This document shows positions 7,754 to 26,500 of a stretch of DNA of 53,794 nucleotides, in pieces. Source of the DNA: Terriglobia bacterium. GTDB taxonomy: Bacteria; Acidobacteriota; Terriglobia; UBA7540. The DNA lies in the NCBI GenBank assembly GCA_046705545.1, contig JBJKQF010000303.1, positions 1-53,794 on the forward strand. The letters run 5' to 3'. The translations under genes were made by a program, and so were the position numbers. The notes under the pieces were generated by a model. It was not told the origin of the DNA, did no database searches, and saw nothing but the letters and a program-made list of their open reading frames with translations. Within the stretch, counting starts at the first letter, position 1. Every line of letters starts with the position of its first letter.

Positions 7754-8683
7754 TTATCGATCCTGTGCAAGCTTGAGCGCAGGAGCAGGTTTGCGGATTC
7801 GTGAAGTAGTAGATTGCACGGTTTGGCCCTTTTGGGCCTTGGCATCCAGGATCGCCTTCCGGGTGGCCGTCAGCATATCCTGAACCGTTTCACGCGAAAG
7901 GTTGCGCACCAGCGGCCTGACGAACCATGCAATCAAAAACGGAATGTCGCGTGAAAGGCTGATGGACTCCCACTCAATAATGACTCCGTCCTTGCACTGC
8001 TCATAGCGCCAGTAAGAATTGATGCGCCAAAGAAAGCCGCTATCGTGCCCTACGGGGTCCAGATGCTCCTGAGGCGTTCCCACATCTTCCACCTGCTGGA
8101 TGCGGGTGGAATAACTACGGGTGTATCCGTGGGTGGCGTCGATCCTCGAATCGTGAATTTTATACCAGGTATCTAACGTCACCGTGACGATCGACTTCTT
8201 CTGGAGGCGCAGGTAAATTTCGAAATTGCTGTCCTCATGGCTGATCAAGCGGGAACGTATGACCTCAGGCTTGTACAGTTCCTTGTAGTCGTTGTAATTC
8301 TGCAGCACGTCGAACGCCTTCGAGATCGAGGTTCCGGGCACCAACACCGCGCCCAGCCAGTGATGCACCATGCCATCCGGCACATCGATCTGATGGCCCG
8401 AAGCGTCTGTTGTCCTGATCCGCTGCACATACACTTGGCCCTGCTTAAGCGTCGCCATGACTTGGTCATATTGAGGCTTCGGGAGTTGTTCGATGTAAAG
8501 GAAGTCGCCGGGGTGGGATTCCTCGCGATTCATGCGCGCCTCGGCCGCCTGCACGTAACGCTCGAACGCCTTCGTCGTGGCCGGGCTCAGGTCCGCCGCC
8601 TGAAGAGCGCCCAGCCCTCCGCACAAGTTCGCCAGCATCGCCAACAGGGCGAGTAATAATACCTTCCGTAATGAATGTCGCAT
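7754..8683 (-). CDS. hypothetical secreted protein, possibly SRPBCC/START-like
   Basis: ATG at 8683 gives a signal peptide (MRHSLRKVLLLALLAMLANLCGGLGALQA). The fold guess is weak. Confidence 0.55.
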   Translation of the reverse strand: MRHSLRKVLLLALLAMLANLCGGLGALQAADLSPATTKAFERYVQAAEARMNREESHPGDFLYIEQLPKPQYDQVMATLKQGQVYVQRIRTTDASGHQIDVPDGMVHHWLGAVLVPGTSISKAFDVLQNYNDYKELYKPEVIRSRLISHEDSNFEIYLRLQKKSIVTVTLDTWYKIHDSRIDATHGYTRSYSTRIQQVEDVGTPQEHLDPVGHDSGFLWRINSYWRYEQCKDGVIIEWESISLSRDIPFLIAWFVRPLVRNLSRETVQDMLTATRKAILDAKAQKGQTVQSTTSRIRKPAPALKLAQDR

Positions 8684-8893
8684 GAAGCCCCTTCGCCACC
8701 ACAACCCGCCGTTCCTCATGTTAGCATGGGGCGCAGCCGGAAGCCCAGACACGCGGGTTCCGGACGCCTGTGGGCGCCGGCACTTCGGTCCTTGCCGCTC
8801 GCGAAGGGCTGCAAGAACCCTGGTAACGGCCCGCGAATTGTCGGCATCATAGTATCCACGGGCTAAAAAATTCCAAAAGGGGGTTATTCAACA

Positions 8894-9568: not shown

Positions 9569-11278
9569 ATGGCACAGAGCATCGCAAAGCCCAAGGTTTA
9601 TGACGCGATTATTGTGGGGTCGGGAGCCGGCGGAGGCATGGCGGCTTACGTTCTGACGCAGGCGGGAGCAAAGTGCCTGATGCTGGAAGCTGGCGGCTGG
9701 TACGACACCGCCAAGCAATCCAAAATGTTCGAATGGTATTACCAGGCACCGCACCGTGGCGAGGTGGCGCAGCACACCACTTATAACTACTTCGACGCCG
9801 CGGTGGGCGGATTTACCGTTCCCGGAGAACCCTACCTTAATGCCCCTGGCTCGGACTGGTCGTGGTTCCGCTCGCGGATGCTGGGCGGGCGCACAAACCA
9901 TTGGGGGCGCGTCGCTCTGCGCATGGGCCCTTATGACTTTAAGCCCTACAGCCGAGACGGCAAAGGGTTCGACTGGCCCATTGCCTACCAGGATCTCGCT
10001 CCCTATTACGACAAGACCGAGGAATTGGTGGGAGTCTTCGGGACGGCCGAGCATCTGGAGAACGCCCCGGACGGGAAATTTCTTCCCGCGCCGAAACCGC
10101 GCTGCTACGAGCTGGTAATTCAGCAAGCCTGCCGGAAGCTCAACATTCCCTGCATCCCTTCTCGCCTGGCCATCATTACCCGCTCCATACATGGCCGGCC
10201 CGCTTGCCATTACTGCTCACAATGCGGCCGCTCCTGCGCAACCTCCTCGAACTTCTCTTCCCCCACGGTCCTGCTGCCGCCCGCCTTGAAAACCGGCAAC
10301 CTGGAAATTCGCTGTGACGCCATGGTGCGGGAGGTCCTGGTGGGGCGCGACGGCTTGGCCACCGGGGTCTCTTACATCAACAAAAAGACCCGCCAGGAAG
10401 TGCAGGTCCGGGGCAAGATTGTCATCTTGGCCGCCAGCAGCTGTGAAACGGCGAGGCTGCTCCTGAATTCGCGCAGCCCTCAGCACCCGGACGGCCTGGG
10501 AAACTCCGGCGGGATGGTGGGCCGCTACCTGATGGACACGCTGGGGGCTGACGGTACGGTGGGCTTTCTGCCGGTCCTGTCGGACCTTCCCCCGCACGAC
10601 GGCGACGGCACCGGAGGGTTCCATCTCTACATGCCCTGGTGGAATTACGAAAAACAGTTCAAGCACGAACTACCGTTCTCGCGCGGCTACCACATCGAAT
10701 TCAGCGGCGACCGCCGCCAGATGCCGGGCCCCGAGGTCTTCAAAGGCTCCGAGCGCTACTTGGGCGGGGGTTACGGGGCGGAGCTGAAACGCGGGTTGCG
10801 AAAAGCCTTCGGCTCCTTCGTCAGCTTTTCAGCCCGCGGCGAGATGATTCCCAACGACCAAAGCTACTGCGAGATTGACAAGAACGCTCTCGACGAGTGG
10901 GGAATCCCGGTGCTGAAGTTCCACTTCAAATGGAGCGAAGATGAAATTCAGATGGCCCGGCACGCCCGCGAAACTTTCCGGGAAATTATCGAGGCGGCGG
11001 GCGGAGAAGTGATCCAAACTTACGACGCCAGCCAAAACTGGGGAATCTATCCGGGAGGCGCAGTCATCCACGAAGTGGGCGCGGCCAGAATGGGCAACGA
11101 CCGCAGCACTTCGGCGCTGAATTCCTATTGCCAGGCATGGGACTGCAAGAACCTTTTTGTCACCGACGGCGCACCTTTTGTCAGCAACTCTAACAAGAAC
11201 CCGACATTGACGATCATGGCTTTGGCGTGGCGAACTTCAGAGCACGTAGTGGACCAGGTCAAAAAGCTGAATATCTGA
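9569..11278 (+). CDS. GMC-family FAD oxidoreductase, catalytic subunit (gluconate 2-dehydrogenase alpha-like)
   Basis: DAIIVGSGAGGG Rossmann motif. Cys-rich CHYCSQCGRSC segment. C-terminal HEVGAARMG active-site region. No signal peptide. Confidence 0.9.
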   Translation: MAQSIAKPKVYDAIIVGSGAGGGMAAYVLTQAGAKCLMLEAGGWYDTAKQSKMFEWYYQAPHRGEVAQHTTYNYFDAAVGGFTVPGEPYLNAPGSDWSWFRSRMLGGRTNHWGRVALRMGPYDFKPYSRDGKGFDWPIAYQDLAPYYDKTEELVGVFGTAEHLENAPDGKFLPAPKPRCYELVIQQACRKLNIPCIPSRLAIITRSIHGRPACHYCSQCGRSCATSSNFSSPTVLLPPALKTGNLEIRCDAMVREVLVGRDGLATGVSYINKKTRQEVQVRGKIVILAASSCETARLLLNSRSPQHPDGLGNSGGMVGRYLMDTLGADGTVGFLPVLSDLPPHDGDGTGGFHLYMPWWNYEKQFKHELPFSRGYHIEFSGDRRQMPGPEVFKGSERYLGGGYGAELKRGLRKAFGSFVSFSARGEMIPNDQSYCEIDKNALDEWGIPVLKFHFKWSEDEIQMARHARETFREIIEAAGGEVIQTYDASQNWGIYPGGAVIHEVGAARMGNDRSTSALNSYCQAWDCKNLFVTDGAPFVSNSNKNPTLTIMALAWRTSEHVVDQVKKLNI

Positions 11279-11354
11279 CACCGGGCACGATCTGTTAACG
11301 AGGGGGTCCGAAAGAATCGTGGGTCAAAAATCAAACAAAAGAGGCGAAGGCGCC

Positions 11355-11984
11355 ATGAAGCGCCGCGACGTACTGAGGTTTTTTTCCGCAGTACCGGCAG
11401 CCCTGATCCCCTTGGAAAGCGCCGTGGCGGCGCAGCGGAAAGCTGGCGGAAAAGCAGCGGCGCCGGCAGCGTCCGCCTACCGGCGGCAGACCTTTACCGA
11501 TCAGGAATGGGAAACCGTCAAGGTCTTGTGCGACCTGATAATCCCCGCAGACGAGCGGAGTGGTAGCGCCACCCAGGCCGGCGTACCCGAATACATCGAC
11601 GACATCCTCGCCTTTAAAGGCGGCAACTTGCAGGCGGAAATTCGCGGCGGCCTGATGTGGCTGGACCGCGAATGCAACCAGCGCTATGGCCGCGATTTCG
11701 TCCTCTGCGATCCCACCGGGCAAAAACAACTCCTCAACCGCATCGCCTACCCGGGAAAGGCGGCTCCGGAAGATTCCAACTACGTCGCCTTCTTCAACTC
11801 CATGCGCGACCTGGTTGTGGGAGGATTCTTCTCGAGCGAAATCGGCATTAAAGACCTGCCCTACCTCGGCAACAAAGTCGTGGCTCACTGGGAAGGCTGC
11901 CCGCCCGACGTTCTGGCCCGAATCGAGGAAAACCTCAAAGCCCGGCAGGTGGGACTGAGCCTCAGCGACCAGGAAAAAGCCTGA
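11355..11984 (+). CDS. gluconate 2-dehydrogenase subunit 3-like small subunit with Tat signal
   Basis: ATG at 11355 (the track start 11319 is GTG). Twin-arginine signal MKRRDVLRFFSAV. Lies directly downstream of the GMC gene. Confidence 0.8.
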   Translation: MKRRDVLRFFSAVPAALIPLESAVAAQRKAGGKAAAPAASAYRRQTFTDQEWETVKVLCDLIIPADERSGSATQAGVPEYIDDILAFKGGNLQAEIRGGLMWLDRECNQRYGRDFVLCDPTGQKQLLNRIAYPGKAAPEDSNYVAFFNSMRDLVVGGFFSSEIGIKDLPYLGNKVVAHWEGCPPDVLARIEENLKARQVGLSLSDQEKA

Positions 11985-12842: not shown

Positions 12843-13517
12843 CTATTGGGACTGGATAATTCCTCTTTTCACCGCGTAGAGCACCAGCTCCGCCGTTCGG
12901 TGCAAGCCCAGCGTATCCATCAAGCGCGCGCGGTGAACAGCCACCGTATTGATACTGATTTCCAATAAGGTAGCGATTTCCTTATTCGATTTCCCCTGCG
13001 CGATGAGTTGGAGGACTTCTTTCTCACGAAGAGTGAGCCGCTCATATGGGTCCTGCTTGGGGTCTTGGATGCTCCCTGTCTTCAGGCCTTCCAGGACCAG
13101 GTTGGAAATGGCCGGGCTCATAAATGCTCCACCCTGCGCCACCGCAACCACCGCCTGCGGCAAATCGATTTCAATGGCGTCCTTCAAGATGTAGCCTTTG
13201 GCGCCCACTTCAATGGCTTTGCGCACGTAGGCAGGATTAGAGTACATGCTAAGAATCAAAATCTTGGCGTCCGGGTTGGCCTTGAGGATTTCCGCCATCG
13301 CCTCCAGGCCCCCAATCTCGGGCATCAGCAGGTCCATCACCACCACGTCCGGCTTGATCGCCCCACATTGCTCAATGGCGGCAAGGCCCGTACTGGCCTC
13401 GCCCACAACCTCGATGCGAGGATCGTCCTCGAGCAACCGGCGAAAACCCTGGCGGACCAGCGTGTGATCCTCAGCCAAAAACACACGAATCTTCTTTCCC
13501 GAATTGTCGGCTGGCAT
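12843..13517 (-). CDS. NarL/LuxR-family response regulator
   Basis: REC domain (VFLAEDH..., VVMDLLMP). C-terminal LuxR HTH (LTLREKEVLQLIAQGKSNKEIA). The ATG lies 3 nt after the kinase stop. Confidence 0.92.
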   Translation of the reverse strand: MPADNSGKKIRVFLAEDHTLVRQGFRRLLEDDPRIEVVGEASTGLAAIEQCGAIKPDVVVMDLLMPEIGGLEAMAEILKANPDAKILILSMYSNPAYVRKAIEVGAKGYILKDAIEIDLPQAVVAVAQGGAFMSPAISNLVLEGLKTGSIQDPKQDPYERLTLREKEVLQLIAQGKSNKEIATLLEISINTVAVHRARLMDTLGLHRTAELVLYAVKRGIIQSQ

Positions 13518-13520
13518 CTG

Positions 13521-14939
13521 TTATCCCACCCTTTCAGCCACAGCAGGACTGGCGGCTCTTTTCAATGGTATGTGAACGCGGATGATTGTACCTTTCCCTG
13601 GCGCGGATTGTATCACAAGCTTGCCGTTCAAGTGTTCGGTCCGTTCCCGCATACCCATCAGACCGATGCCATCCCCCGGCGAGCGGCCCGAGGGCGGGCT
13701 GACTTCAAAACCCACTCCATTATCCCGGATTTCCAGGCCCAGGCCGCCCGGGCGCTCTTCCAATTGGACCCATGCCTCCGTAGCTTTGGAATGGCGCGCC
13801 ACATTATTGAGAGCCTCCTGGACAATCCGATAAACATGGATGGCCCCCTCGGCGGGGAAACAATCATTGGGCAGATTGCCGCTAAAGTGCACCTCGATTC
13901 CCGCTTGGCGGGAAAACTGCCGGGCAAACCACTCAAGCGTCTGGTCAAGCCCGAAATCGTCCAGGACCCCGGGCCGGAACATTTGTGACTGGTCCCGAAC
14001 TTTGCTCAAAGTGTCTTCTACAATCGTCTTGATGTTTTCAAGGTCCTCAGTAAAGACCGGATCGGGTTGTTTCACCCTTCGGCCGGCGCGATTGAGCATG
14101 ACGCCGATTGCGGTGAGGATCTGGCCGAATTCATCGTGCAAGTCACGCGCCACCTGCCTCAGAGTTTCCTCCTGGACGTCAATCAGCTTCCAGGAAAGCT
14201 TCCGCAACTGTCCCGATTGGTCATGGAGTTGTTCGGCTAAATGCTGGAGTTTCGCAAAGGTCTTGCGGTTAGCTTGGAAAGTGTAAAGCCCCGTACCCAA
14301 AGCCAGCAGCAACAAGACAGCCGTCAGCCAAAAGATGTCCGTCTTAACGTCTTCATAGGTGGTATGGATGCGCCGGGCGGCATCCGCCTGTTCCTGGTCG
14401 TTCAACACCAGGAGGCGCGCTACGATCTCTGAGATGATTGCCCGCTTGCTCTCCAGTTCGGTTTCAATCAGAGCCCGGGCCTGAGCGCTTCGGCTTTGCC
14501 GGGCCAAGGCAAAAACTTTGTCCGCGGTTTGGCCGAAGCTGGCCAGCGCGCCGCGCAACTGGAGTCGTTTGTCGTGGCTGGCCACCGTGTCGACCGCGTA
14601 GCGGCTTTCCAGCATCGCGGCGTTCTCCATGTCTTTCCGCAGACGCGTGACCTCCGGCTCCCAGTCACGAATCGGATATCGGCTCTTGGAAAGCTCCAGG
14701 TCCCGCAAGGAAATCGCCAACCCGTAAACATCGTTCTGAAGCCGTGAAAGCTGCAGAGCATCCTTGCGGTTCCTCTGGACCACGTTCACCTGGAAGTCTT
14801 CAAGCCAGCGGATCTGCTGGCTGCTGTAAACGACAAAAACCAGGAAAATGGAGAGAATGATGCAAAGACCAATCCACAGGCGAGTCGAGGGAGAGGGAAT
14901 TTCCCGCAGCTGGTCGTGTTGGGACTCAGAACCGCTCAT
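13521..14939 (-). CDS. sensor histidine kinase (HisKA_3 / NarX-like) with periplasmic helical sensor domain
   Basis: Two TM segments flank an approximately 170-aa helical domain. H-box LHDEFGQILTAI. ATPase motifs NNVARHS, DNGVGF, GIGLMGMRER. Confidence 0.9.
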   Translation of the reverse strand: MSGSESQHDQLREIPSPSTRLWIGLCIILSIFLVFVVYSSQQIRWLEDFQVNVVQRNRKDALQLSRLQNDVYGLAISLRDLELSKSRYPIRDWEPEVTRLRKDMENAAMLESRYAVDTVASHDKRLQLRGALASFGQTADKVFALARQSRSAQARALIETELESKRAIISEIVARLLVLNDQEQADAARRIHTTYEDVKTDIFWLTAVLLLLALGTGLYTFQANRKTFAKLQHLAEQLHDQSGQLRKLSWKLIDVQEETLRQVARDLHDEFGQILTAIGVMLNRAGRRVKQPDPVFTEDLENIKTIVEDTLSKVRDQSQMFRPGVLDDFGLDQTLEWFARQFSRQAGIEVHFSGNLPNDCFPAEGAIHVYRIVQEALNNVARHSKATEAWVQLEERPGGLGLEIRDNGVGFEVSPPSGRSPGDGIGLMGMRERTEHLNGKLVIQSAPGKGTIIRVHIPLKRAASPAVAERVG

Positions 14940-14942
14940 GAC

Positions 14943-16691
14943 TTAGGTGGAACGCTTAAAGGGAATATCGTCAATAATGCCTTTGCCTTCCTTGATCACG
15001 TAGGTACGCCCTGCCTGCAACCTTCCCAGTTCCTGCTTCAGCCCGCTGGGCCACTCCAAGATGGCTTTCTCGATATATTGATAGGGACCCAGCCCGAATG
15101 TGACCCGGTGGTCCGAGCAGGATAGGTAGCTGGAGCCGCTTTTCACGGTCAGCCATCGCTGTCCCTGCGGCGCCCAGACGTGAACGTTGGTGCCAATGCC
15201 ATCCCGGTTGGAGCGGTCGCCAATCGTCGCGAACCTGATGCTGTGATTGGAGGACCGATCGTTTCGGTACAGATAGGCCGGCCCGTTGTTGGTAGTCATG
15301 AGCACGTCCAGGTCCCCATCGTTGTCAAAGTCCCCATAAGCGGCACCCCGGGCTACCTTCGGCTGGTCAAACGACTTCCCTACAAGCGTGCTGATATCAC
15401 GGAACTTACCATGCCCTTCATTATGAAACAAGCGAGGCGGCTCTGCATAGGTGATACTCGCCTCAACGTGGCTGATGGTGGCATCGATGTGGCCGTTGGC
15501 CACCAGCAGATCGAGCATGCTGTCCAAGTCAAAGTCGAAGAAGAAACATCCAAAGCCCAGCGTCATGCGGGTGGACTGGCCGATGGCGTTCTCCGGCGCC
15601 TCGTCGATAAAGAACCCGTGGCCCTCGTTCCGGTATAGGCCCACCATCTGCTGGGAAAAGTTCGTCACTACCAGGCTGGGCAGGCCGGAGTTGTCGTAAT
15701 CGGCGGCGTCCGCCCCCATGCCGGCCCGGGCCACGCCATCCTCGCTAAAGGCCACTCCCGCTGAAACCGCCACCTCCGTAAAGGTGCCATTGTGGTTGTT
15801 GTGATAAAGCTTGTTGGGCTGGGTATCGTTGGCGATGAACACGTCCGGCCAGCCATCCAGATCGTAATCGATCATCGTGACGCCCAGTGATTTGGACGTC
15901 GGATCGTATAAGCCCGACTTCCCGGTGACGTCTTCAAATGTTCCGTTACCACGGTTGTGAAACAGCCAGCAGGTGGTTCCGGGGTAGGCTTCCGGCGTGC
16001 AATAAGACTTGGTCTTGCCATCCAGGCTGCAAAAAATGTCCGATTCCGGCGACCACTTGACGTAGTTGGCCACCAGCAGGTCCAGGTGGCCGTCCCGGTC
16101 ATAATCGAACCATAAGGCCGAGGTGCTGAGGCTTGAGTAGCCGGACAATCCGGCTGAGCGCGTCACGTCGGTAAACGTGCCGTTGGCGTTGTTGTGGAAC
16201 AGGTGGTTCTGGCCGTAAGTGGTAATGTAAACATCATCAAACCCGTCGTTGTCATAGTCCCCAATCGCCACCCCAATGCCATACATCTCCACGTCCAGGC
16301 CGGCAGCGCGGGTGACATCGGCAAACGTCCCGTTGCGATTATTGCGGTAAAGCTTCATGGTTGTGCGGGCCTTATGGTGGTCCGGCCAGTCCATGCCGTT
16401 GATCAGCAGAATGTCAAGCCAACCATCGTTGTCATAATCGAAGAAGGCGCAGCCGGAGCCGAGCGTCTCCGGCAAGTACTTTTTGCCAAAAGCTCCGCTG
16501 TTATGTTCAAACAGGATCCCAGCTTGGCGGGTAACATCGACTAATTGATCAGGAAAGGGCTGGGTTGCAGCATGAGGGGTGAAAAGTCGGGACAAGCTTT
16601 TGCGGGCGCTCTGCGACTCATACAGCAGTCCCCCAGCGCCGCCAGCGGCTGCAAGACCTGCGAGCAGCTTGAGTAAATTCCGACGTTCCAT
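14943..16691 (-). CDS. CRTAC1 family protein (FG-GAP/VCBS repeats plus ASPIC/UnbV-like C-terminus), Tat signal
   Basis: ATG at 16691, with a GTG one codon upstream at 16694. Tat motif ERRNLLKLLAG. Repeated DYDNDG(W/F)xD and NNxNGTFxDVT units. Confidence 0.85.
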   Translation of the reverse strand: MERRNLLKLLAGLAAAGGAGGLLYESQSARKSLSRLFTPHAATQPFPDQLVDVTRQAGILFEHNSGAFGKKYLPETLGSGCAFFDYDNDGWLDILLINGMDWPDHHKARTTMKLYRNNRNGTFADVTRAAGLDVEMYGIGVAIGDYDNDGFDDVYITTYGQNHLFHNNANGTFTDVTRSAGLSGYSSLSTSALWFDYDRDGHLDLLVANYVKWSPESDIFCSLDGKTKSYCTPEAYPGTTCWLFHNRGNGTFEDVTGKSGLYDPTSKSLGVTMIDYDLDGWPDVFIANDTQPNKLYHNNHNGTFTEVAVSAGVAFSEDGVARAGMGADAADYDNSGLPSLVVTNFSQQMVGLYRNEGHGFFIDEAPENAIGQSTRMTLGFGCFFFDFDLDSMLDLLVANGHIDATISHVEASITYAEPPRLFHNEGHGKFRDISTLVGKSFDQPKVARGAAYGDFDNDGDLDVLMTTNNGPAYLYRNDRSSNHSIRFATIGDRSNRDGIGTNVHVWAPQGQRWLTVKSGSSYLSCSDHRVTFGLGPYQYIEKAILEWPSGLKQELGRLQAGRTYVIKEGKGIIDDIPFKRST

Positions 16692-16694
16692 CAC

Positions 16695-17056
16695 CCGGCC
16701 GACTCGAGCCCAACCTCCCGTGGTTCAAAAATAGCCGTCCCCAGCCATGGGAGCAAGACAATTCGGCTACCTAAGCCTTTTATATTCTTCCCATACTTGA
16801 AAATTTCGGCATAAATAATGCTTTTTAATTACACGCCTGATTCGCTTTTATCTCGCCGTTGAAGCTTCGACTGGGTTAGGCATCTGTTTTCAACAAACCA
16901 AGCAGATTGGGGAGTAAGTTAGTAGAAAAAAAATCCCCGACTAATATAAAAAAATCATAAGTTCACACAAAACGGGGTTGAAATTGTCGACCGCTATCCG
17001 ATAAGGTTGTGGCTCTCGCGTCGGGCTTGGGTAGTTGGGGGCAACTCGAAAAAAAG
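16695..17056. promoter_or_regulatory. AT-rich divergent control region between CRTAC1-TCS operon and cytochrome-TPR operon
   Basis: 362 bp with no ORF, and visibly the most AT-rich stretch of the window. A8 at 16926..16933 and A7 at 16948..16954. TTGAAA hexamers at 16797 and 16978. The second hexamer has a 16-nt spacer to GATAAG (17000..17005), a candidate plus-strand promoter. Confidence 0.45.
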
Positions 17057-20000
17057 ATGGCGGACAAGGCTAAGGACGTCCAAAAACGTCGGCGAATCGG
17101 CACGATTCTTTTGCTCCTCATATTGGCCCTGGCGCTCAACAGCGCCTATCTGGCGGCCTACTCCACACCAGATCTCTTCTACGTCATCAACGCGCTCTTG
17201 CATCCTGTTGCGGGCGTGCTGGCTGCCATCCTGCTGGTCGTTTACTTAAAGCGCCACAGAGACTATCTTGCAAGCCTCTCCGGACGCCTTTCCGTGGCGC
17301 TTTTAGGCTTGGCGGCAGGTTTTGGCATCTACCTCATCTTTGTCGGGATGACGCAGCGCCATAACTTGGCGCTCTACATCCACGTGGGGTGCTCCCTTGG
17401 CGGCCTTTTCTTCCTGCTGGTTCGCCTGCGCACTTGGCTGCGCGACCACAACGTCCTAATCTTCTCCCGTCCCGCCTGGCAAATGGCCGGCGTCGGCTTT
17501 GTGGGAGCGCTGGTATTCTACGGCGGAGCAGCGCTTTACCATCACTACGACCCCAATCCTGAGTACATTATCAAGAATCCCCTGACAGCCCCCACCAGCA
17601 TGTACAAGGAAGGCGGCGGAAAAAACAGCTTGATGTTTCCAAGCTCAGCCCAAACGGCCAACAAGGGAACCATACCTCGGGAATTTTTCCTGAATTCCAA
17701 AAGTTGCGAACCGTGCCACAAGGACATTTACGACCAGTGGTCACACTCGATGCACCATTTTTCTTCTTTCAACAACCAATGGTATCGCAAGGCCATTGAG
17801 TACATGCAGGACACGGTGGGCATCAAGCCTTCGATGTGGTGTGCGGGCTGCCATGACCACGCTCTGGCGTTCACCGACATGATGCAAAAATATCCCATCC
17901 GGAAGATTGAGTTCACTCCGGAGGGCCAGGCAGGCCTGGGCTGCATGTCCTGTCATGCCATCCAGCGCGTCACCAGCACCATGGGGAATGGCAGCTATAT
18001 CATGAAGTACCCTCCCCTCGACCGGTACGTTTCCAGCAAGAATCCGATCCTGCGCGACCTCAGCTATTATGCGATCCTTCTGAATCCCAAGCCGCACCGC
18101 CAAGCCTTTTTCAAGCCGTTTCTGGCCAACCATCATGAGCAGGCAAGATTCTGCTCAGCCTGCCACAAGGTACATCTGGATGTTCCCGTCAACCACTATC
18201 GCTGGATTCGCGGTTTCGACGACTACGACCATTGGCAGGCCAGCGGCGTTTCCGGCCACAGTGCAAGATCCTTTTACTACCCTCCCAAACCTTTAAATTG
18301 CGTGAACTGCCACATGCCGCTGGTGAAATCCCATGATTACGGCAACATCAACGGCTACGTCAATTCACACCGCTTTGTGGCGGCGAATACGGCCGTGCCC
18401 ACCTCCCACGGCGACACCTCGCAAGTCAAGGACGTCAAAGAATTCCTGAAAGACGCGGTCACGGTCGATCTATTTGCCATCGCCGCTGAACCCACGGGCA
18501 AGTCGGAGCGTCCCATTTCGTCGGGACTGCTGGGAGGAGCCCCGCAGACCTCCACGATGTTTGCGGTCGGCGAGGAATCGGCTCGCGGCTTGGAGTCGCA
18601 GGAAGTCACGGCCGTGCCCCCCGCCAAGCTGATGGCGCCGCTCAACCGCGGCACCGCCTACCTGCGCCGCGGAGAGACGGCGCGGGTTGAGGTCGTGGTG
18701 CGCACCCGGAAAGTGGGGCACTTCTTCCCGGGGGGAACCGTAGACGCCTTCGACTGCTGGGTGGAACTGAAGGGAGTGGATGACAAGGGACACACAGTCT
18801 TCTGGAGCGGCGAAGTAGCCGACAACGGCAAAGGGCCGGTGGATCCCGGCGCCCATTTCTACCGCTCTTACTCGCTTGACGAGCAGGGTAACTGGATCAA
18901 CAAGCGCAACGCCTGGGCGGCGCATGCCACCGTCTACGTGCACTTGATTCCTCCGGGCGCAGCGGACACCGTGCATTTCCGGATCAAAGTGCCCAAAGAC
19001 TGCGGCGACAAGATCACCTTCACGGCCAAGCTCAATTACCGCAAGTTTGACTGGTGGAACACCCAATGGGCGTTCGCGGGCCGCCGCGATCCGTATCAGA
19101 AGGACCGGCGGACCACGCTTGATTACGACAACACCGAGTGGCTCTTCAACGGCAACTTGTCCAACGTATCGGCCAAGGTCAAAGAGATTCCCAACGTTCC
19201 CATCGTCGTCATGTCTAAAGACATCGCGACCGTGCCGGTTCGGGCGGCTTCCGATCAGCCATTCCAGCAGGACATCAAGCTGCTGCCCGACGATGTGTAC
19301 CGCTGGAACGATTACGGCATCGGACTGCTGCTCCAGGGCGATCTGAAGGGAGCGGCGCGCGCCTTTAAAATCGTCACCAAGATCAATCCCAAGTATGCCG
19401 ACGGGTGGGTGAACGTGGCCCGCGCACTCGTTCAGGAAGGCAACGTTGACCAGGCGATTCCTTACCTCAAGACGGCCATCGGGCTGAACCCCGAGCTCGC
19501 CAGCGCCCATTACTTTATGGGGCTGGTTTATGAGACCAAGGGCAAATATCCGCAGGCGTACGACCAGTTCGCCAAGGCAGCCGCCAACCACCCCGTGGAT
19601 CGTGTGGTGAGCAACGCCATGGGCCGCATTCGTTTCCTGGAGCGAAAGTACGCGGAAGCGGTCAAGCAATTCCAGCACACGCTCAGCATCGATCCGGAGA
19701 ACTTGGCGGCGCATTACAACCTGATGCTCTGCTATCGCGGACTTCAGAAGAACAAAGAATCCGACCACGAAGAGAAGTTGTATCTGCGCTTCAAGGCTAA
19801 TGAAATTGCCCGCGCCATCACAGGGCCTTTCAAACGAGACAATCCGGATGAAAACAATGCCTCGCAGCCTATTCACGAGCACGTTTCCATCAGCGATGAA
19901 AACCCCACGCGGCTGAAGTTCTACTGGAATTACGGCCAGCGATGGGAGTGGTTGCCAGGCAAGCTGGGACAGGAACAGCTGGTCGCTCTGAAGCGTTACA

Positions 20001-20185
20001 AGAAGGACGGCAGCTACGGCTACCTGGAGGCCATGAGGAAAGACAAACTCGAGTTGCATGCCGCACACAAGGTCATGGCGAAAAAGAACCTCCAGAAACA
20101 CGCCATACCGAAGGTCGACGCAAAAGCAAAACCACGGGCGCGCGCCGATCATAAAATGATTGCGGAAGAAAGACCCCTGCGGTAA
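17057..20185 (+). CDS. membrane-anchored multihaem (5x CXXCH) cytochrome-like protein fused to TPR repeats
   Basis: ATG at 17057 (the track start 17009 is GTG). About 5 N-terminal TM helices. CXXCH motifs at nt 17705, 17840, 17942, 18152 and 18299. TPR-like repeats at about 19300..19800. Confidence 0.8.
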   Translation: MADKAKDVQKRRRIGTILLLLILALALNSAYLAAYSTPDLFYVINALLHPVAGVLAAILLVVYLKRHRDYLASLSGRLSVALLGLAAGFGIYLIFVGMTQRHNLALYIHVGCSLGGLFFLLVRLRTWLRDHNVLIFSRPAWQMAGVGFVGALVFYGGAALYHHYDPNPEYIIKNPLTAPTSMYKEGGGKNSLMFPSSAQTANKGTIPREFFLNSKSCEPCHKDIYDQWSHSMHHFSSFNNQWYRKAIEYMQDTVGIKPSMWCAGCHDHALAFTDMMQKYPIRKIEFTPEGQAGLGCMSCHAIQRVTSTMGNGSYIMKYPPLDRYVSSKNPILRDLSYYAILLNPKPHRQAFFKPFLANHHEQARFCSACHKVHLDVPVNHYRWIRGFDDYDHWQASGVSGHSARSFYYPPKPLNCVNCHMPLVKSHDYGNINGYVNSHRFVAANTAVPTSHGDTSQVKDVKEFLKDAVTVDLFAIAAEPTGKSERPISSGLLGGAPQTSTMFAVGEESARGLESQEVTAVPPAKLMAPLNRGTAYLRRGETARVEVVVRTRKVGHFFPGGTVDAFDCWVELKGVDDKGHTVFWSGEVADNGKGPVDPGAHFYRSYSLDEQGNWINKRNAWAAHATVYVHLIPPGAADTVHFRIKVPKDCGDKITFTAKLNYRKFDWWNTQWAFAGRRDPYQKDRRTTLDYDNTEWLFNGNLSNVSAKVKEIPNVPIVVMSKDIATVPVRAASDQPFQQDIKLLPDDVYRWNDYGIGLLLQGDLKGAARAFKIVTKINPKYADGWVNVARALVQEGNVDQAIPYLKTAIGLNPELASAHYFMGLVYETKGKYPQAYDQFAKAAANHPVDRVVSNAMGRIRFLERKYAEAVKQFQHTLSIDPENLAAHYNLMLCYRGLQKNKESDHEEKLYLRFKANEIARAITGPFKRDNPDENNASQPIHEHVSISDENPTRLKFYWNYGQRWEWLPGKLGQEQLVALKRYKKDGSYGYLEAMRKDKLELHAAHKVMAKKNLQKHAIPKVDAKAKPRARADHKMIAEERPLR

Positions 20186-20257
20186 ATTCCAGACTGCCAG
20201 GACGCTTTTCCCGGGGCTACAACCTCCAAAACGAAAGGTTCACGAGTAGGAAATATT

Positions 20258-21961
20258 ATGGGTGATTCCTCGCGCCGTGATTTTCTGAAGAATTTTTTGA
20301 TGCTCGCAGGTGCGTCGCAAATCGGCGTCCCCGCCGGCCTTTTGGGCGCAGTGGCACCCACTGGAAGGCATTACCTGGACGTCACGGCTCAAGCGGGGAT
20401 CCACTTCATCCATAACAACGGCGCCTTCGGACAGAAATACCTGCCGGAAACCATGGGGTCTGGGTGCGCCTTCATCGATTACGATAACGACGGCAACCAG
20501 GACATCCTCTTGATCAATGGCACGGATTTCCCCGGCCACGTCCGCCGCCAGACCACCATGAAGCTGTATCACAACAACGGCAATGGAACCTTCACGGACG
20601 TTACTGCGCGAGCCCGTCTGAATATTCCCATGTACGGCATGGGCGTGGCCATTGGGGACTACGACAATGACGGATGGGATGATATCTACGTGACGGGCCT
20701 AGGCGAAGCCCGCCTCTTCCACAATCAGCACAACGGCACCTTCCGCGACGTCACCAAGGAAGCCGGGGTCAACAACACGGGCTTCGGCACCAGCGCTGCT
20801 TGGTTCGATTACGACCGCGACGGCAAGCTCGACCTCTTCGTCTGTAATTACGTCCAGTGGGAGCAAAAAAAGGACATCTACTGCACCCTGGACGGCCGCC
20901 ACAAGTCCTATTGCACTCCTGAAGCCTACAAGGGAGAGAGCTGCCGCCTGTTCCACAACCTGGGGAACGGCCGCTTTGAAGACGTCACCAAGAAGGCGGG
21001 CATTTACGACATGTCAGGTAAGAACCTGGGCGTGGCCATCGTCGATTACAACATGGACGGCTGGCCGGATATCGCGGTATCGGACGACACAGAGCCCAAC
21101 AAGCTTTACCGCAACAACCACAACGGGACGTTTACCCAGGATTCCGTTCAGGCCGGCATTGCTTATGACATGAACGGCATCGCGCGGGGCGCCATGGGCA
21201 TTGATGCCGCGGACTTCAACCGCTCCGGCTACCCCAGCCTGGCCATCGGCAACTTTTCCAACCAGATGCTGGGCCTCTACCAGAACGAAAAGCACAACTT
21301 CTTTATCGACATTGCACCCCAGTCAGCCATTGGGCAAGACAGCCGCTTAGCGCTGACTTTCGGCCTTTTCTTTTATGACTACAACCTTGACGGGCTTCAG
21401 GACCTGTTCGTGGCCAACGGCCACATTGAGCCCGACATTGCGCGCATCCAGGCTCAGGTCACCTATGCGGAGAGGCCGCTGCTATTCCGCGACGAGGGAA
21501 ATAGCCGCTTTCAAGAGGTTGGCAAACAGGTCGGCTTTACCCGGCAAATGGTGGCGCGGGGGGCGGCTTATGGGGATATCAACAACGATGGATACCCGGA
21601 CGTCCTGGTGACCACCAACAACGGTCCAGCCCATCTCTTCAAAAACACGGGACGGGACACGGCCAACGCCGTCCGCATCAAGACGGTGGGCACCCGCTCA
21701 AACCGCAACGGCATTGGCGCGGTGGCCCGGGTCCACTCGAACGGCGCCGTCAATTGGCAGACCGTCCACTCCGGATCCAGCTACTGCTCCCAGAGTGAAC
21801 TTCCGCTTACATTTGGGCTCAACAAAGCGGAATCTGCCGAAGAAGTTCACATCCTCTGGCCCAGCGGACAACAAGACGTGCTGAAGAATGTGAAAGCCAA
21901 CGCCACGTACACCATCCAGGAGGGTGGAAAGGTGCTCTCCACCCGCCCGTTTAAGCGGTAA
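20258..21961 (+). CDS. CRTAC1 family protein (FG-GAP/VCBS plus ASPIC/UnbV-like), Tat signal; paralog of 14943..16691
   Basis: Tat motif SRRDFLKNFLMLAG. Same repeat units as the first paralog, and by eye roughly 60% identical to it over the N-terminal half. Confidence 0.85.
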   Translation: MGDSSRRDFLKNFLMLAGASQIGVPAGLLGAVAPTGRHYLDVTAQAGIHFIHNNGAFGQKYLPETMGSGCAFIDYDNDGNQDILLINGTDFPGHVRRQTTMKLYHNNGNGTFTDVTARARLNIPMYGMGVAIGDYDNDGWDDIYVTGLGEARLFHNQHNGTFRDVTKEAGVNNTGFGTSAAWFDYDRDGKLDLFVCNYVQWEQKKDIYCTLDGRHKSYCTPEAYKGESCRLFHNLGNGRFEDVTKKAGIYDMSGKNLGVAIVDYNMDGWPDIAVSDDTEPNKLYRNNHNGTFTQDSVQAGIAYDMNGIARGAMGIDAADFNRSGYPSLAIGNFSNQMLGLYQNEKHNFFIDIAPQSAIGQDSRLALTFGLFFYDYNLDGLQDLFVANGHIEPDIARIQAQVTYAERPLLFRDEGNSRFQEVGKQVGFTRQMVARGAAYGDINNDGYPDVLVTTNNGPAHLFKNTGRDTANAVRIKTVGTRSNRNGIGAVARVHSNGAVNWQTVHSGSSYCSQSELPLTFGLNKAESAEEVHILWPSGQQDVLKNVKANATYTIQEGGKVLSTRPFKR

Positions 21962-22015: not shown

Positions 22016-23092
22016 CTACTCCCGGCGCGTTACTCCAGCGGCAATCCAGAATTTTCCGGGCTCGAACCCTGCATCGAGCGCGTAATTGTGGGCGAGAAGC
22101 TGAAGGATCACCACATCCACCAGAGTCCCAAGCCCTAAACGTATGGGTTCAACCTGGATCAGCCTCATATTGGTCACGTCTTCAACCGCGCGGTCAGACA
22201 GAAGCAGCACCCGGCCCCGGTGTGACCGGATATCTTCGGCCAGGCGTAGCATGAGCGCTGCGGTCTTCTGTCCCTGCGCGGTCGGCTGGGTTTGGCGGAT
22301 CAACATGATGTAGCAATGGGACGGGTTGACGATCTCGATGGGACCATGGCGAAACTGCGCGGCGCTCATGGGCTCCGCCGCCAGCCGGGCAACCTCTTTG
22401 AGCATCAAAGCTCCCTGGTAGGCGGAAGCCAAATCGGCGCCCCTCGACAGCAGAGCAACGTATGGAGGGTGATTGAAAAATTGCATCGTCGGGCGCATGA
22501 GAACATCTTGGCGATCGAGGATTTCTTCTTGCGCCTCCACGGCACGTTTGAGAGCGTGAGAAAGCGGCCGGTGATGCTGGCCTTCGAGGGCAAAAGCCAG
22601 GTACATCAGGACGGCAACGGCACAGGTATAGGTCTTTGTGCTCACGGCCGCTTGGACGCCAGCCATCATCGGTAACATCAAGTCCGCCCGCTTCGCAAGC
22701 AGGCTTCGCTCCATGTTCGTAACGGCCAGAATGCTTACTTTGGCAGGCAAGGCCTCCAGAAGACGGGCCACCTCCGCCGTTTCGCCGGATTGCGAAACAA
22801 CCACCAGAAGCGTGTCCGGCGTGAGGATTTTGAGGTGGTGGTGAACAAGTTCGGCGGTCTCCCAAATCAGGGCGCGGCGCCCCATCGCAGTCAGGTAAGC
22901 CTGCGCGGGATAGGCCGCATGCAGGGAAGATCCCATGCCGGTGAACAAGATGGTGGTTTGACGGGAGACCCCCAGCTTCTTCAGCACACTCCGGGAAATG
23001 GCGCCCGGGCTGGCATAGTATTTCCGAACATTCGCCAGGGCAGCGGGCTGCTGCAGGATTTCTTCCATCAACGGAGTCATGGCGTTAGGCAT
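22016..23092 (-). CDS. double-SIS-domain sugar phosphate isomerase/aminotransferase-like protein (GlmS C-terminal/FrlB/AgaS-like)
   Basis: Motifs GMGSS and VVVSQSGETAEV. 358 aa, with no glutaminase domain. Confidence 0.85.
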   Translation of the reverse strand: MPNAMTPLMEEILQQPAALANVRKYYASPGAISRSVLKKLGVSRQTTILFTGMGSSLHAAYPAQAYLTAMGRRALIWETAELVHHHLKILTPDTLLVVVSQSGETAEVARLLEALPAKVSILAVTNMERSLLAKRADLMLPMMAGVQAAVSTKTYTCAVAVLMYLAFALEGQHHRPLSHALKRAVEAQEEILDRQDVLMRPTMQFFNHPPYVALLSRGADLASAYQGALMLKEVARLAAEPMSAAQFRHGPIEIVNPSHCYIMLIRQTQPTAQGQKTAALMLRLAEDIRSHRGRVLLLSDRAVEDVTNMRLIQVEPIRLGLGTLVDVVILQLLAHNYALDAGFEPGKFWIAAGVTRRE

Positions 23093-24076: not shown

Positions 24077-26500
24077 TCAGAAGCTTACCTTCAGCCGGAC
24101 GCCAAAGCTGCGAGGAGTGCTGACGGCCGTCCCGGAAAAGAGGCTTGCAAAGTTGATGACGTTGAGGTGGTTTGTAAGGTTTGAGCCGCGAACCTGAAGG
24201 CTCACCAACGCGTCGTTCTGGGCGTAGAGGTCAAGCCCCGCCGCAGCCCCGATGGAGTAAGATGGGCGTACGCGCCCGCGTGCGAAGTCCACTTGATTCA
24301 GTATTTTAGATCCATACTGCTGGAGGAGAAAGTTGTAGTCGATGTCGCCGGTATCCAGTTCAACCGGCAAGCCGCTTCCATAGGAGCTGCTGGTGGCCAG
24401 CCACAGCCGTTTGGTCGCCTGGTAACGCACCAGAGACCGCGCCGTATTGCGCTGGTCCTGGGAGACCCAGAAGTGGCTGGTGTCCGAAACGTCTGATATG
24501 GCTTGGGATCCGATCAGTAGCCCTCCGGTAATGGGTCCGCGGCCCACGCCTTCCTGGTTGGCGTAACTGAGGTAGCCCGAGAAACGATCCCAACGCGGCA
24601 GTTCCAGCTTGGTTTCAACACCTTCAATCCAAGCGCTTGCGTCCGCAATGGGAAAACTGACGCCGGTGTTGAGCAGGGTGTCATCATCAGGGTAGTTCCG
24701 GAAGTCCCTCCGGAAGACGTTGGCGTTCAGGCGAAGCTTCCCCCGGAAGCCTTTCGCAAATCCCACTTCATAGTAGTTTGCCCGCGCGGGCAAGACCGGC
24801 AGCCGCAGCACTAGGCCGCTGATCTGCTGAACTTGGGGAGAACTGGCCAGCAGCAGGTTCTCCATCGCAGGGGTCTGAAAAACGCGGTCGTAGGCGGCGT
24901 GGACCACAACTCCAATCGAGGTGAAATAGCGCGATGCAGCCACCCTTGGGCTCCAGGCGGATTTACGCACCACGAAGCCATAGTGATCGTAGCGCAGGCC
25001 CAAGCTTAGGTTCCAATGGTGACGGCGGATCTCATCCTGGGCAAATGCGGCGGGCTCAGCGTCCGTACGCCGTCCCTGAAAAGCAAACTGCAAGTTGGTT
25101 CCCGGGTCAAACTGCGAAGGGTCTGTGATCGCGTAGTTGAGCGCTTCATGCACCGGGCTCAAGATCATGTCCGCGCCTATCTTCCAGTCCTGGGCGCCAT
25201 GGTGGCCCGCCAGAGTGACGCGTCCGTACCCCTGCCGAAAACCCCTCTGCTGCCCGATCACGATAGGCGTGCTGAACGAATTCGACCAGAGGCGGAAAGA
25301 GTCATCCCGCACGCTGCCTTCAGCCCGAAACAGGAGGTTGGGAGAAAGAACCCGCTCATAATCAGCTTGGCCGCTCGTTTCCACATCCGCGCTGTCCTGC
25401 CGCTGCCCCGCCGCCTGCTGCACCTTCTCATTGGGAACAAGATACCGAACCTGGGCGTGCCGAAAAGAAAGCCGCAGACGGTCATGGTCCGTCAAATCTC
25501 GCGTGTAACTTCCCGTGATTCCTCCCGTTGAGCCGCGATTCGTGAAGTTGTCAAGGACAGGAGGGTCCAGGTAACGATCCGTCACCCCTCCGGTACCCCC
25601 CAGGGTGAATTGGTTGGCCCCGCGTGCGTACCCCATCTGCGCGGAGCCAGTTGCAGTAGCAAAGCTGCCCCCCTCCCCGGTCGCGGTTAGATGCAGCCCA
25701 GGAGTCAGGTCGTCCCGCTCGATGACCTCTACCACCCCTCCCAGCTTGCGCCCGTATTCAGCGGGAAATCCCGCAGTCAGGACGCGCATGGATTCGACGC
25801 CCTGCGATTCCAGAGGGGGAGCATAAGCAGGTGAACGGTTCTCGGTGAGCGGAACGCCTGCCACAACAAATTGAACGGCATTTTCAGACCCGCGAGGATG
25901 CAGAATCCCGTTGGCCTCGTAGAGCCAGCCCGGCTCGTCGTCCACCAAGTTGGACAACCCCCGTCCCATTTGCGCGGGCATCTGTTCGTTGATGGCTTGC
26001 GGACCCACGACGTAAACGCTATTGGCGCGTTCCGGGTTCAACAACGTAGACGAGTCGGTCACGTTGACTTGGCTGTGAACCGGCGCCAAGCCCAGCACCA
26101 CCGTGACGCTGAGCGGAACTTCCGAACGAATCGTAATCAGCCGTTGCGTCGGACGAAATCCCTCATAGGTCACTCTCAGGCGATAGACGCCAAAAGGAAG
26201 TTCCCGAGCCACGTATTTCCCGTCCCGCCGGGTGAGAAACTTCCGATCAACGTGGTTGGCTTCGCTTACCAACTCAACGGTGGCCGCCAGCGGCCCACCC
26301 TTCGAATCCTCAACTTTGAGGCGTAGAGCGCCGCTTTCGTGCTGAGCGAAGACAGGAATCGAAGCGAGCATGGCGAGGCTGATGAGCCAAGCGAGGCAGC
26401 GCACAAGGGCTCTTGGCGTGCGTAGCCAATTCGTTTTCGGTAAAACAAGGGTGGAACAACAAAGGCCTGGAGCGGAGCCGGGAATTATCCGACGAGACAT
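24077..26500 (-). CDS. TonB-dependent receptor with N-terminal carboxypeptidase-regulatory-like domain
   Basis: Signal peptide, CarboxypepD_reg-like segment (LRLKVEDSKGGPLAATVELV), plug region, and a long beta-barrel ending in ...VRLKVSF. Confidence 0.85.
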   Translation of the reverse strand: MSRRIIPGSAPGLCCSTLVLPKTNWLRTPRALVRCLAWLISLAMLASIPVFAQHESGALRLKVEDSKGGPLAATVELVSEANHVDRKFLTRRDGKYVARELPFGVYRLRVTYEGFRPTQRLITIRSEVPLSVTVVLGLAPVHSQVNVTDSSTLLNPERANSVYVVGPQAINEQMPAQMGRGLSNLVDDEPGWLYEANGILHPRGSENAVQFVVAGVPLTENRSPAYAPPLESQGVESMRVLTAGFPAEYGRKLGGVVEVIERDDLTPGLHLTATGEGGSFATATGSAQMGYARGANQFTLGGTGGVTDRYLDPPVLDNFTNRGSTGGITGSYTRDLTDHDRLRLSFRHAQVRYLVPNEKVQQAAGQRQDSADVETSGQADYERVLSPNLLFRAEGSVRDDSFRLWSNSFSTPIVIGQQRGFRQGYGRVTLAGHHGAQDWKIGADMILSPVHEALNYAITDPSQFDPGTNLQFAFQGRRTDAEPAAFAQDEIRRHHWNLSLGLRYDHYGFVVRKSAWSPRVAASRYFTSIGVVVHAAYDRVFQTPAMENLLLASSPQVQQISGLVLRLPVLPARANYYEVGFAKGFRGKLRLNANVFRRDFRNYPDDDTLLNTGVSFPIADASAWIEGVETKLELPRWDRFSGYLSYANQEGVGRGPITGGLLIGSQAISDVSDTSHFWVSQDQRNTARSLVRYQATKRLWLATSSSYGSGLPVELDTGDIDYNFLLQQYGSKILNQVDFARGRVRPSYSIGAAAGLDLYAQNDALVSLQVRGSNLTNHLNVINFASLFSGTAVSTPRSFGVRLKVSF

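Follow-up and report, generated by a model that had tools for sequence, protein, structure and literature searches.

Whether a predicted multihaem protein, two predicted CRTAC1-type propellers and a two-component system that are encoded side by side form one working module is the question raised by positions 12,843 to 21,961 of contig JBJKQF010000303.1 from a Terriglobia bacterium of the phylum Acidobacteriota (GenBank assembly GCA_046705545.1). This contig, 53,794 nucleotides (nt) in length, was analysed as a whole and is referred to below as the window. To our knowledge, CRTAC1/ASPIC-UnbV proteins and their tetratricopeptide repeat (TPR) neighbours are widely annotated but have no demonstrated bacterial function, and our literature searches found no report of a bacterial function for the CRTAC1 family. 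An earlier note on this DNA had proposed that the locus encodes a single, undescribed extracytoplasmic module of redox or sensing nature under the control of its own two-component system. Our results support a smaller conserved unit of two genes, not the five-gene locus, namely a gene for a cytochrome fused to TPRs (hereafter the central protein) followed by a gene for a CRTAC1 propeller.

The anatomy of the locus is as the earlier note described it, apart from one start codon. The listing of open reading frames (ORFs) places five genes on two divergent strands, and Pfam assigns to them the domains that had been claimed. The central protein (1042 amino acids (aa); 17057..20185, plus strand) combines five transmembrane helices in its AlphaFold2 models with five CXXCH motifs found by motif scan and a TPR array recognized by Pfam; its ATG at 17057 matches the starts of relatives in the alignment, and a GTG at 17009 is open too. 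After 72 nt, the same strand carries the gene of CRTAC1-B (567 aa; 20258..21961), the conserved core partner. On the minus strand lie, in the order of transcription, the genes of the accessory upstream paralog CRTAC1-A (583 aa; 14943..16694), of a HisKA_3 sensor histidine kinase (472 aa; 13521..14939) and of a NarL/FixJ-type response regulator with REC and LuxR/GerE helix-turn-helix domains (224 aa; 12843..13517), successive genes being separated by 3-nt gaps (14940-14942 and 13518-13520). The ORF of CRTAC1-A opens with a GTG at 16694, and the ATG at 16691 that had been taken as its start is one codon further in.

The two-gene unit emerged from a genome scan with one genome per species, in which at least 588 species, almost all of them Acidobacteriota, proved to carry a relative of the central protein, and from which 80 loci with 48-78% identity to the central protein (numbered L001 onwards) were fetched. 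Downstream DNA of 1.5 kb or more is available for 69 loci, and in 67 of these a CRTAC1 gene is located on the same strand no more than 1.6 kb downstream of the central gene; of the remaining two loci, one has a CRTAC1 gene at +2 kb and the other (L071) has none. The co-occurrence of these gene families thus exceeds chance, as the earlier note had supposed. Clustering of the ORFs from the 80 loci and the window identified CRTAC1 as the sole consistently conserved neighbour (74 of 81 loci, with six of the seven misses at contig ends), and the pairing was seen again in two further long contigs with independent gene calls and precomputed Pfam assignments. Amidase, ROK regulator, TonB-type receptor and SIS genes were also considered as conserved neighbours, but each of them occurs in only 7-14 loci, and we dismissed them as lineage synteny. 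As for the single informative locus without a downstream CRTAC1 gene, L071:5577-7873, 3.4 kb of downstream DNA are available and contain an unassigned 345-aa ORF and a DUF3179 gene, seemingly split; the contig is binned as 'Heliomicrobium' and looks mis-binned.

The architecture of the central protein is equally stable. All 120 closest homologs are about 1000 aa long and contain exactly five CXXCH motifs at constant spacing, so that the motifs are kept in the orthologs, as the earlier note had expected; these best 120 homologs are named at most 'tetratricopeptide repeat protein'. When the non-TPR part of a Vicinamibacterales homolog served as the query, at least 8000 matches were obtained at E-values up to 1e-10, and among the matches listed, 120 of 120 carry TPRs and most are 930-990 aa long. 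When 1.84 billion cluster representatives (50% level) were searched exhaustively by HMMER with residues 1-735, 2777 of them matched at E<=1e-3, including 686 at E<=1e-30.

The two-component system shows a different pattern. Homologs of the kinase and the regulator occur within 10 kb of the central gene in about 13 of the 80 loci, in three arrangements. The divergent order of propeller, kinase and regulator seen in the window recurs in L001, L002, L003, L006 and L013 and, with an inserted TonB-type receptor gene (CarboxypepD_reg-like), in L007 and L009; in L011, the kinase and cytochrome genes are direct divergent neighbours; and in a distant clade (L042, L048, L060, L067, L069), kinase, regulator, propeller, cytochrome and propeller genes are co-directional, the kinases being 36-39% and the regulators about 50% identical. 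L001-L003, L006, L007, L009, L013 and L023 have an ortholog of CRTAC1-A (74-87% identity) upstream of the central gene. Such recurrence in different arrangements supports a functional link between the two-component system and the module. Nevertheless, neither this system nor the upstream propeller belongs to the core; both are accessories restricted to some clades. Accordingly, of the single module envisaged in the earlier note, the cytochrome-TPR/CRTAC1 unit stands, on the strength of synteny and of the TPR-CRTAC1 fusions described below, whereas the other genes fall outside it; the link that the note had drawn to the two-component system likewise holds for the loci with a homologous HisKA_3/LuxR pair and does not extend to the conserved unit.

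Two further observations concern the arrangement of these loci. In L011, the kinase gene (2-1015) and the cytochrome gene (1460-4276) have no propeller paralog between them. The TonB-type receptor genes (CarboxypepD_reg-like, about 1100 aa) either separate the two-component/propeller unit from the cytochrome gene or immediately precede the latter (L007:5285-8692 and L009:5982-9353; also L019, L037, L050 and L080).

According to Pfam, the regulator consists of Response_reg (E 1.4e-24) and GerE (E 1.1e-17) domains, and the kinase contains HisKA_3 (E 7.3e-12) and HATPase_c (E 2.7e-16), along with a weak match to 4HB_MCP_1 at residues 19-183. A helical sensor segment of the kinase (residues ~40-195) is predicted to be periplasmic, with two flanking transmembrane segments read by eye. 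The pair thus has in common with NarX/NarL-type systems a HisKA_3 kinase with a predicted periplasmic helical sensor and a REC/LuxR-type regulator. We rejected orthology to NarX/NarL: the kinase falls below the NCBIfam cutoffs (NarQ, 93 bits versus 553; NarX, 85 versus 578), the best matches of the regulator (MctR, UvrY and NarL) are all far below theirs (NarL, 143 bits versus 250; NarP, 136 versus 343), and only the general HisKA_3/LuxR class can be assigned.

What kind of protein is the conserved partner of the propeller? An initial AlphaFold2 run on the full-length central protein with a 30-sequence alignment was unusable (predicted local distance difference test (pLDDT) 50.8) and was replaced by a run on residues 1-740 with a 121-sequence alignment (pLDDT 78, predicted template modelling score 0.77); both runs yielded five N-terminal transmembrane helices. 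In the second run, the helices of this anchor (residues 1-165; 17057..17551, plus strand) span residues 2-34, 40-66, 74-96, 100-130 and 135-164, with pLDDT of about 85-96. Judging by the sequence and the model, the N-terminus carries a KRRR motif followed by the five helices, without a cleavable signal peptide, which places the haem, immunoglobulin (Ig)-like and TPR parts in the periplasm. Two histidines are nearly invariant in the alignment, H49 in the second helix (retained in 69 of 75 distant representatives) and H109 in the fourth (72 of 75), and each is located, by its place in the predicted helices, approximately nine residues inside the periplasmic helix end. The pair is a putative haem b or quinol site. 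A Pfam scan of the anchor alone gave no match better than E 0.06, and neither the membrane nor the haem domain matched NapC/NirT or CbcL/ImcH-type families in Pfam or NCBIfam. The proposed principle, a membrane part joined to a periplasmic multihaem c domain, is the same as in NapC/NirT/CymA and in Geobacter CbcL and ImcH, but no sequence or profile similarity was detected between these proteins and the central protein, the anchor of which comprises five helices and one His pair.

The anchor is followed by a five-haem c-type domain (residues ~200-465; 17654..18451, plus strand), with CXXCH motifs at residues 217, 262, 296, 366 and 415 and a Cytochrome_C554 match of 30.6 bits against a Pfam cutoff of 20.8, and then by an Ig-like beta-sandwich (residues 466-735; 18452..19261, plus strand), which is delineated by the AlphaFold2 strands, has no Pfam match when scanned alone and contains the invariant loop G554-H-F-F-P-G-G-T561. 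The five haem sites persist in each of the 75 distant representatives, 30 of which have a CX4CH form of haem site 1. This variant, for example CGRSGCH, is found in the more distant subfamilies (P0243, P0244 and P0248 are among the 30). In one homolog of 1120 aa (P0151), part of the N-terminal haem region is duplicated in tandem, as the trimmed alignment revealed.

Comparison with solved structures assigns this core to a known fold. The only significant Foldseek match of the model in the PDB was 5ZE8, the low-potential pentahaem cytochrome c552 of Thermochromatium tepidum (E 1.1e-6, probability 1.0, target TM-score 0.55, 15% identity), and a sequence search of the PDB with residues 165-740 returned only 5ZE8 (E 0.0059; profile 1.5e-5) and, weakly but specifically, MccSep, 9wt8 (E 0.044; profile 0.02); with the full-length protein as the query, the same database returned TPR proteins only. 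The literature places cytochrome c552 and Geobacter ExtKL, together with their relatives, in one family of pentahaem cytochromes (PHC) that possess an Ig-like domain (PMC11976967). What was named ExtKL (GSU2937-GSU2936 of Geobacter sulfurreducens) has proved to be a single selenoprotein, MccSep, a periplasmic polysulfide/selenite reductase; its active site combines haem 2, ligated by His122 and Cys239, with Sec325 (selenocysteine), which is carried by an Ig-domain loop (bioRxiv 10.1101/2025.11.18.688581). By profile matches and predicted structure, the periplasmic core of the central protein is a member of this pentahaem c552/MccSep (ExtKL; PHC) fold family. In c552, as in the central protein, an alpha-helical domain with five haems precedes an Ig-like beta-sandwich; c552, however, is soluble and periplasmic, comprises 435 residues in its deposited form and has neither the membrane anchor nor the TPR arm, both of which are present here.

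Conservation within the core is concentrated around what would be the active site. His233, His347, His438 and His555 are present in every aligned sequence and Met420 in 72 of the 75 distant representatives; the segment 381-409 (YRWxRGFxDYDxWQxSGVSGxGARSFYYPP) is very strongly conserved; and H49, H109, H233, H347, H438, the GH loop and the five haem sites are retained down to approximately 31% identity. The c552 segment HAMPTGAP aligns to H555, a His-x-x-Pro-x-Gly loop being common to both proteins. The published MccSep peptide ...AGHSIPDGUP... aligns to the loop ...VGHFFPGGTV... of the central protein, with GHxxPxG in common and Sec325 opposite Thr561. On its own, this peptide alignment lacks significance (60 of 500 shuffled sequences score at least as high), yet it matches the alignment to c552 and the homology at the level of the domains.

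These similarities raise the possibility that the central protein is a membrane-fed terminal reductase of polysulfide, selenite or a similar inorganic compound, in the manner of MccSep, with the propeller merely delivering the substrate. Structures have indeed been solved for only two relatives, MccSep itself and c552, which has been proposed to take part in sulfur metabolism; both MccSep and the central protein have five c-type haems and an Ig-like part (a stem in MccSep), and the GHxxPxG motif, which in MccSep (GHSIPDGU) bears the selenocysteine and reaches the active-site haem, is conserved in the central family. The details of the pocket do not fit. Thr561, opposite Sec325, is invariant in the 121-sequence alignment, and beyond the ten haem-motif cysteines no Cys is conserved in these sequences, and none in residues 371-409, where the ligand would be expected, so that a His/Cys-ligated haem 2 is unlikely. 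Accordingly, we rejected membership in the MccSep-type polysulfide reductases. Furthermore, MccSep is a soluble homotetramer, and its homologs are soluble proteins found mainly in Desulfobacterota and Nitrospirota, whereas the central protein is membrane-anchored and TPR-fused and its family, with CRTAC1 as the neighbour, is almost confined to Acidobacteriota; the Geobacter MccSep gene, for its part, has rhodanese and porin genes as neighbours. Together with the frequency at which shuffled sequences match the peptide alignment, these differences leave such a reductase with little chance of being the correct interpretation.

Kinship with the PHC family also brings to mind extracellular electron transfer, in which the central protein would be the inner-membrane start of a conduit or a nanowire-like chain leading to minerals or humic substances. 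ExtKL belongs to a Geobacter porin-cytochrome gene cluster, PHC cytochromes have been likened to an archaeal cytochrome nanowire, and Pfam reports a weak match to an MtrC/MtrF domain. That match is below the cutoff, however, and the clustering of neighbours detected no conserved porin, outer-membrane cytochrome or further multihaem gene nearby, so we consider a role of this kind highly improbable.

The link between the cytochrome and the propeller is most apparent in the C-terminal part of the central protein. Pfam families TPR_1, TPR_2, TPR_11, TPR_16 and TPR_19 fall at residues 740-900, within an array (residues 740-915; 19274..19801, plus strand) that also accounts for the TPR matches in the PDB and may serve as a periplasmic docking arm. 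The conserved motif RFKAxE..ITGP..DNNExQxIHEH bridges the end of the array and the start of the C-terminal tail (residues 916-1042; 19802..20185, plus strand), which was delimited by alignment conservation, has no Pfam match when scanned alone and continues into a clade-specific Lys-rich extension. The TPR region is 27-31% identical to TPR segments, either stand-alone or fused, that are located ahead of distant CRTAC1 genes, and many Terriglobales loci contain, as a third gene, a fusion of about 1150-1270 aa with N-terminal TPRs followed by FG-GAP repeats and UnbV_ASPIC. Examples of these fusions are L057:14671-18138, L017:19114-22767 and L081:13376-17200, with approximately 25 other Terriglobales loci; about 440 extra residues at their C-terminus have no assigned domain. 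Thus, the central protein shares with other bacterial TPR and CRTAC1 pairs the association of a propeller with paired or fused TPR segments and differs from them in that its TPR partner is fused to a membrane-anchored pentahaem cytochrome. The recurrence of the gene pair in 67 of the 69 loci, combined with the TPR-CRTAC1 fusions, argues that the TPR arm and the propeller work together.

The same repeats could instead serve the maturation or export of the protein's own haem domain, in the manner of CcmH/CycH, or those of the propeller, in which case the adjacency of the genes would reflect co-expression rather than a working complex. TPR proteins often act as scaffolds in periplasmic assembly, and Pfam gives a weak TPR_CcmH_CycH match (30.2 bits versus a cutoff of 42). 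This match, however, is below the threshold and is one of many generic TPR matches; the cytochrome-free TPR-CRTAC1 fusions tie the arm to the propeller rather than to haem attachment; and the pairing is kept across deep divergence (48-78% identity). An assembly or chaperone function is therefore, in our estimation, improbable.

The propellers themselves are well defined. As the earlier note had stated, the two are paralogs (55% identity) built of FG-GAP and UnbV_ASPIC domains: Pfam assigns FG-GAP_3 (E 5.9e-51, seven stretches) and UnbV_ASPIC (E 1.7e-13) to CRTAC1-A and FG-GAP_3 (E 3e-50) and UnbV_ASPIC (E 1.2e-17) to CRTAC1-B, with 6-7 FG-GAP_3 stretches across the pair. CRTAC1-B matches human CRTAC1 (PDB 9ETN, E 1.7e-14), with which the window propellers have in common the FG-GAP repeats, the DxDxDG calcium sites and UnbV_ASPIC. 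Among the 80 partner propellers, six DxDxDG loops of the calcium type are at least 95% conserved, from which calcium binding is predicted; the partners also keep the Cys pair C209/C219, a few His, Arg and Lys residues and the N-terminal motif FxHxNG...LPE. The twin-arginine motifs noted earlier were likewise read by eye, ERRNLLK in CRTAC1-A and SRRDFLK in CRTAC1-B, and they occur in the close clade as well. Twin-arginine translocation (Tat), which the earlier note had made a trait of the module, nonetheless turned out to be clade-specific: an RR motif is present in 29 of the 115 proteins of the CRTAC1 cluster, most of the others have ordinary Sec-type (general secretory) signal peptides, and we rejected Tat export as a feature of the family. 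Consequently, Tat offers no argument for a cofactor inserted in the cytoplasm. An independent hint that such propellers may partner haem proteins comes, by analogy, from a CRTAC1-family FG-GAP gene located among hydrazine-synthase-like multihaem (c554-domain) genes of non-anammox bacteria (PMC12758564), although the haem proteins in those clusters are different in kind (homologs of hydrazine synthase alpha and beta-gamma) and include no TPR-cytochrome fusion.

Taking these lines of evidence together, we favour, with a probability of roughly 40%, a model in which the unit transfers electrons in the periplasm, is coupled to quinones and docks the propeller by means of its TPR arm. The module consists of an inner-membrane protein, with a five-helix anchor, a five-haem and Ig-like core, a TPR arm and a short tail, and of a secreted propeller predicted to bind calcium. 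Under this model, the His pair H49/H109, close to the periplasmic face, would belong to a b-type haem or quinol site at which electrons are exchanged with the quinone pool; the five c-type haems would pass the electrons to the conserved pocket, to which residues 381-409 and the GHFFPGGT loop of the Ig-like domain would contribute; and the TPR arm would hold beside this pocket the CRTAC1 propeller, which could be a substrate-capturing subunit or a redox client. In the clade of the window, a second propeller and a NarX/NarL-like two-component system are added, transcribed divergently from a shared AT-rich region, and some clades may tune expression through a kinase whose sensor is predicted to be periplasmic. 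The analysis shows the domain architecture with its haem motifs, the periplasmic topology, the fold relationship, the gene pairing, the TPR-CRTAC1 fusions, the repeated occurrence of two-component genes nearby and the cis-motif described below; we infer the quinone coupling, the docking of the propeller by the TPR arm, the direction of electron flow, the substrate and the control by the regulator.

Several observations weigh against such a module. In the Pfam scan, the anchor matched none of the known quinol-interacting families. The putative active-site segments, residues 372-409 and 555-562, are of low confidence in the AlphaFold2 model, which for 381-409 is to be expected because this loop wraps a haem that the model does not contain. 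The central protein lacks the catalytic Sec/Cys of the one characterised relative, MccSep, and the two-component system is missing from most loci. Conservation across the 80 partners revealed no recognisable redox cofactor motif in the propellers; with calcium sites and one Cys pair only, they do not bear out the redox role that the earlier note had in mind for them. TPR-CRTAC1 pairs and fusions occur without any cytochrome, so the propeller has no inherent need of electrons. Finally, the lineages that carry the cytochrome-TPR family are best known as aerobic heterotrophs, and since the family is common in them, a respiratory role is not obvious.

Some of these observations fit better with a redox-sensing anchor, in which the haems would sense the redox state of the periplasm or a small ligand, the TPR arm would hold or release the propeller, and the propeller would be structural, with a part in adhesion, the matrix or the envelope, without net electron flow to a substrate. 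Cytochrome-free pairs and fusions would be natural under this scenario, as would propellers with calcium sites only, which resemble integrin or CRTAC1-type binding proteins, and the spread of the family in lineages known as aerobic heterotrophs; the central protein also has no cytoplasmic output domain, so that a signal would have to act within the periplasm. On the other hand, five haems and a conserved membrane His pair exceed the usual needs of a sensor, the strongest conservation surrounds the pocket that is catalytic in MccSep, and some loci already encode a separate kinase with a predicted periplasmic sensor. On balance, we deem sensing unlikely, although appreciable, and retain the electron-transfer module as the preferred interpretation.

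The region upstream of the cytochrome gene contains candidate control signals. The 362-bp divergent region between the CRTAC1-A and central genes (16695..17056), correctly described in the earlier note as AT-rich, has a GC content of 0.45 (0.37 in its core) compared to 0.58 for the window and ranks as its most AT-rich stretch, with an AT content that only 0.26% of windows of 362 bp reach; blocks of this region are kept in L001, L002, L003 and L006. A repeat search revealed a direct repeat, TAGTAGAAAAAAA / TAATATAAAAAAA (16920..16954, plus strand), with starts 22 nt apart, which is a candidate cis-element of the cytochrome gene. The pattern TARTRNAAAAAA has two matches only in the window, the copies of the repeat, against 0.02 expected. 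A looser pattern, TA[GA]T[AG]N followed by at least five A, has 15 matches in 1.38 Mb of related loci, and 12 of the 15 precede the cytochrome gene by no more than about 250 bp. The loci concerned are L001-L006, L024, L035, L064, L072 and L078, the motif being located approximately 75-250 bp upstream. On this sequence evidence, the A-tract motif marks the putative promoter region of the cytochrome gene across clades. It is also present upstream in loci that have no two-component system nearby, so the factor that binds it may be encoded elsewhere. Just upstream of the cytochrome gene, the alignment of the window with L001, L002, L003 and L006 showed a promoter-like block, CAAAACG..TTGaAATT..CCGACC..TATCCGATAAGGT..CTCGCGTCG (16967..17026, plus strand); a scan for consensus promoters and terminators called nothing in the intergenic region, this block included.

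The genes that flank the locus look unrelated to it; they encode a GMC oxidoreductase, endonuclease V, a SIS protein, a CarboxypepD_reg outer-membrane protein that is probably a TonB-type receptor, GH35 and melibiase. The GMC oxidoreductase gene (9569-11278) is followed by one for a gluconate 2-dehydrogenase subunit-3-like protein (11319-11984) with the twin-arginine motif KRRDVLRF, and the two look like a separate periplasmic sugar dehydrogenase that is not tied to the cytochrome-CRTAC1 module. The SIS-domain gene (22016-23092, minus strand) downstream of CRTAC1-B has a similar position in seven related loci, which is probably lineage synteny rather than a sign of module membership. The outer-membrane protein gene (24077-26500) is related to the CarboxypepD_reg-like TonB-type receptor genes of the other loci. 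Two ORFs of the window, 6049-7308 (minus strand, 419 aa) and 7754-8752 (minus strand, 332 aa), match no Pfam family at E-values up to 1e-5.

How much of this is new? Each domain is of a known class, and the cytochrome core has solved relatives. To this extent, the word 'undescribed' in the earlier note was too strong, Foldseek and HMMER having placed the core in the pentahaem c552/MccSep fold family; for the architecture and the pairing, which are absent from the literature found, the word still applies. With the exception of the paper on hydrazine-synthase homologs, our literature searches found no paper describing a CRTAC1/FG-GAP/UnbV system with multihaem or TPR proteins, and the combination of five transmembrane helices, a PHC core and a TPR array, its near-obligate pairing with CRTAC1 and its phylum-wide spread are without description in the literature searched.

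Acidobacteriota are among the most abundant soil bacteria, and the label 'tetratricopeptide repeat protein' hides in them a membrane-anchored five-haem cytochrome. The CRTAC1 propeller family thereby gains a link to a predicted redox partner, the cytochrome, and the recently defined pentahaem c552/MccSep family is extended by a membrane-bound branch that is free of selenocysteine and has its own strongly conserved pocket. The leads that can be tested are H49, H109, H555, T561, the loop 381-409, the predicted contact between the TPR arm and the propeller, and the conserved promoter motif. In the most ambitious interpretation, which we regard as doubtful, the unit would be a periplasmic redox enzyme system found throughout the Acidobacteriota, with a quinone-linked PHC cytochrome and a TPR-recruited CRTAC1 protein as the substrate-binding or catalytic subunit that would act on an extracytoplasmic substrate. 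If this is true, it would provide a first biochemical role for the CRTAC1/ASPIC-UnbV family, which reaches humans, and would define a new class of membrane electron-transfer anchor with five transmembrane helices and one His pair.

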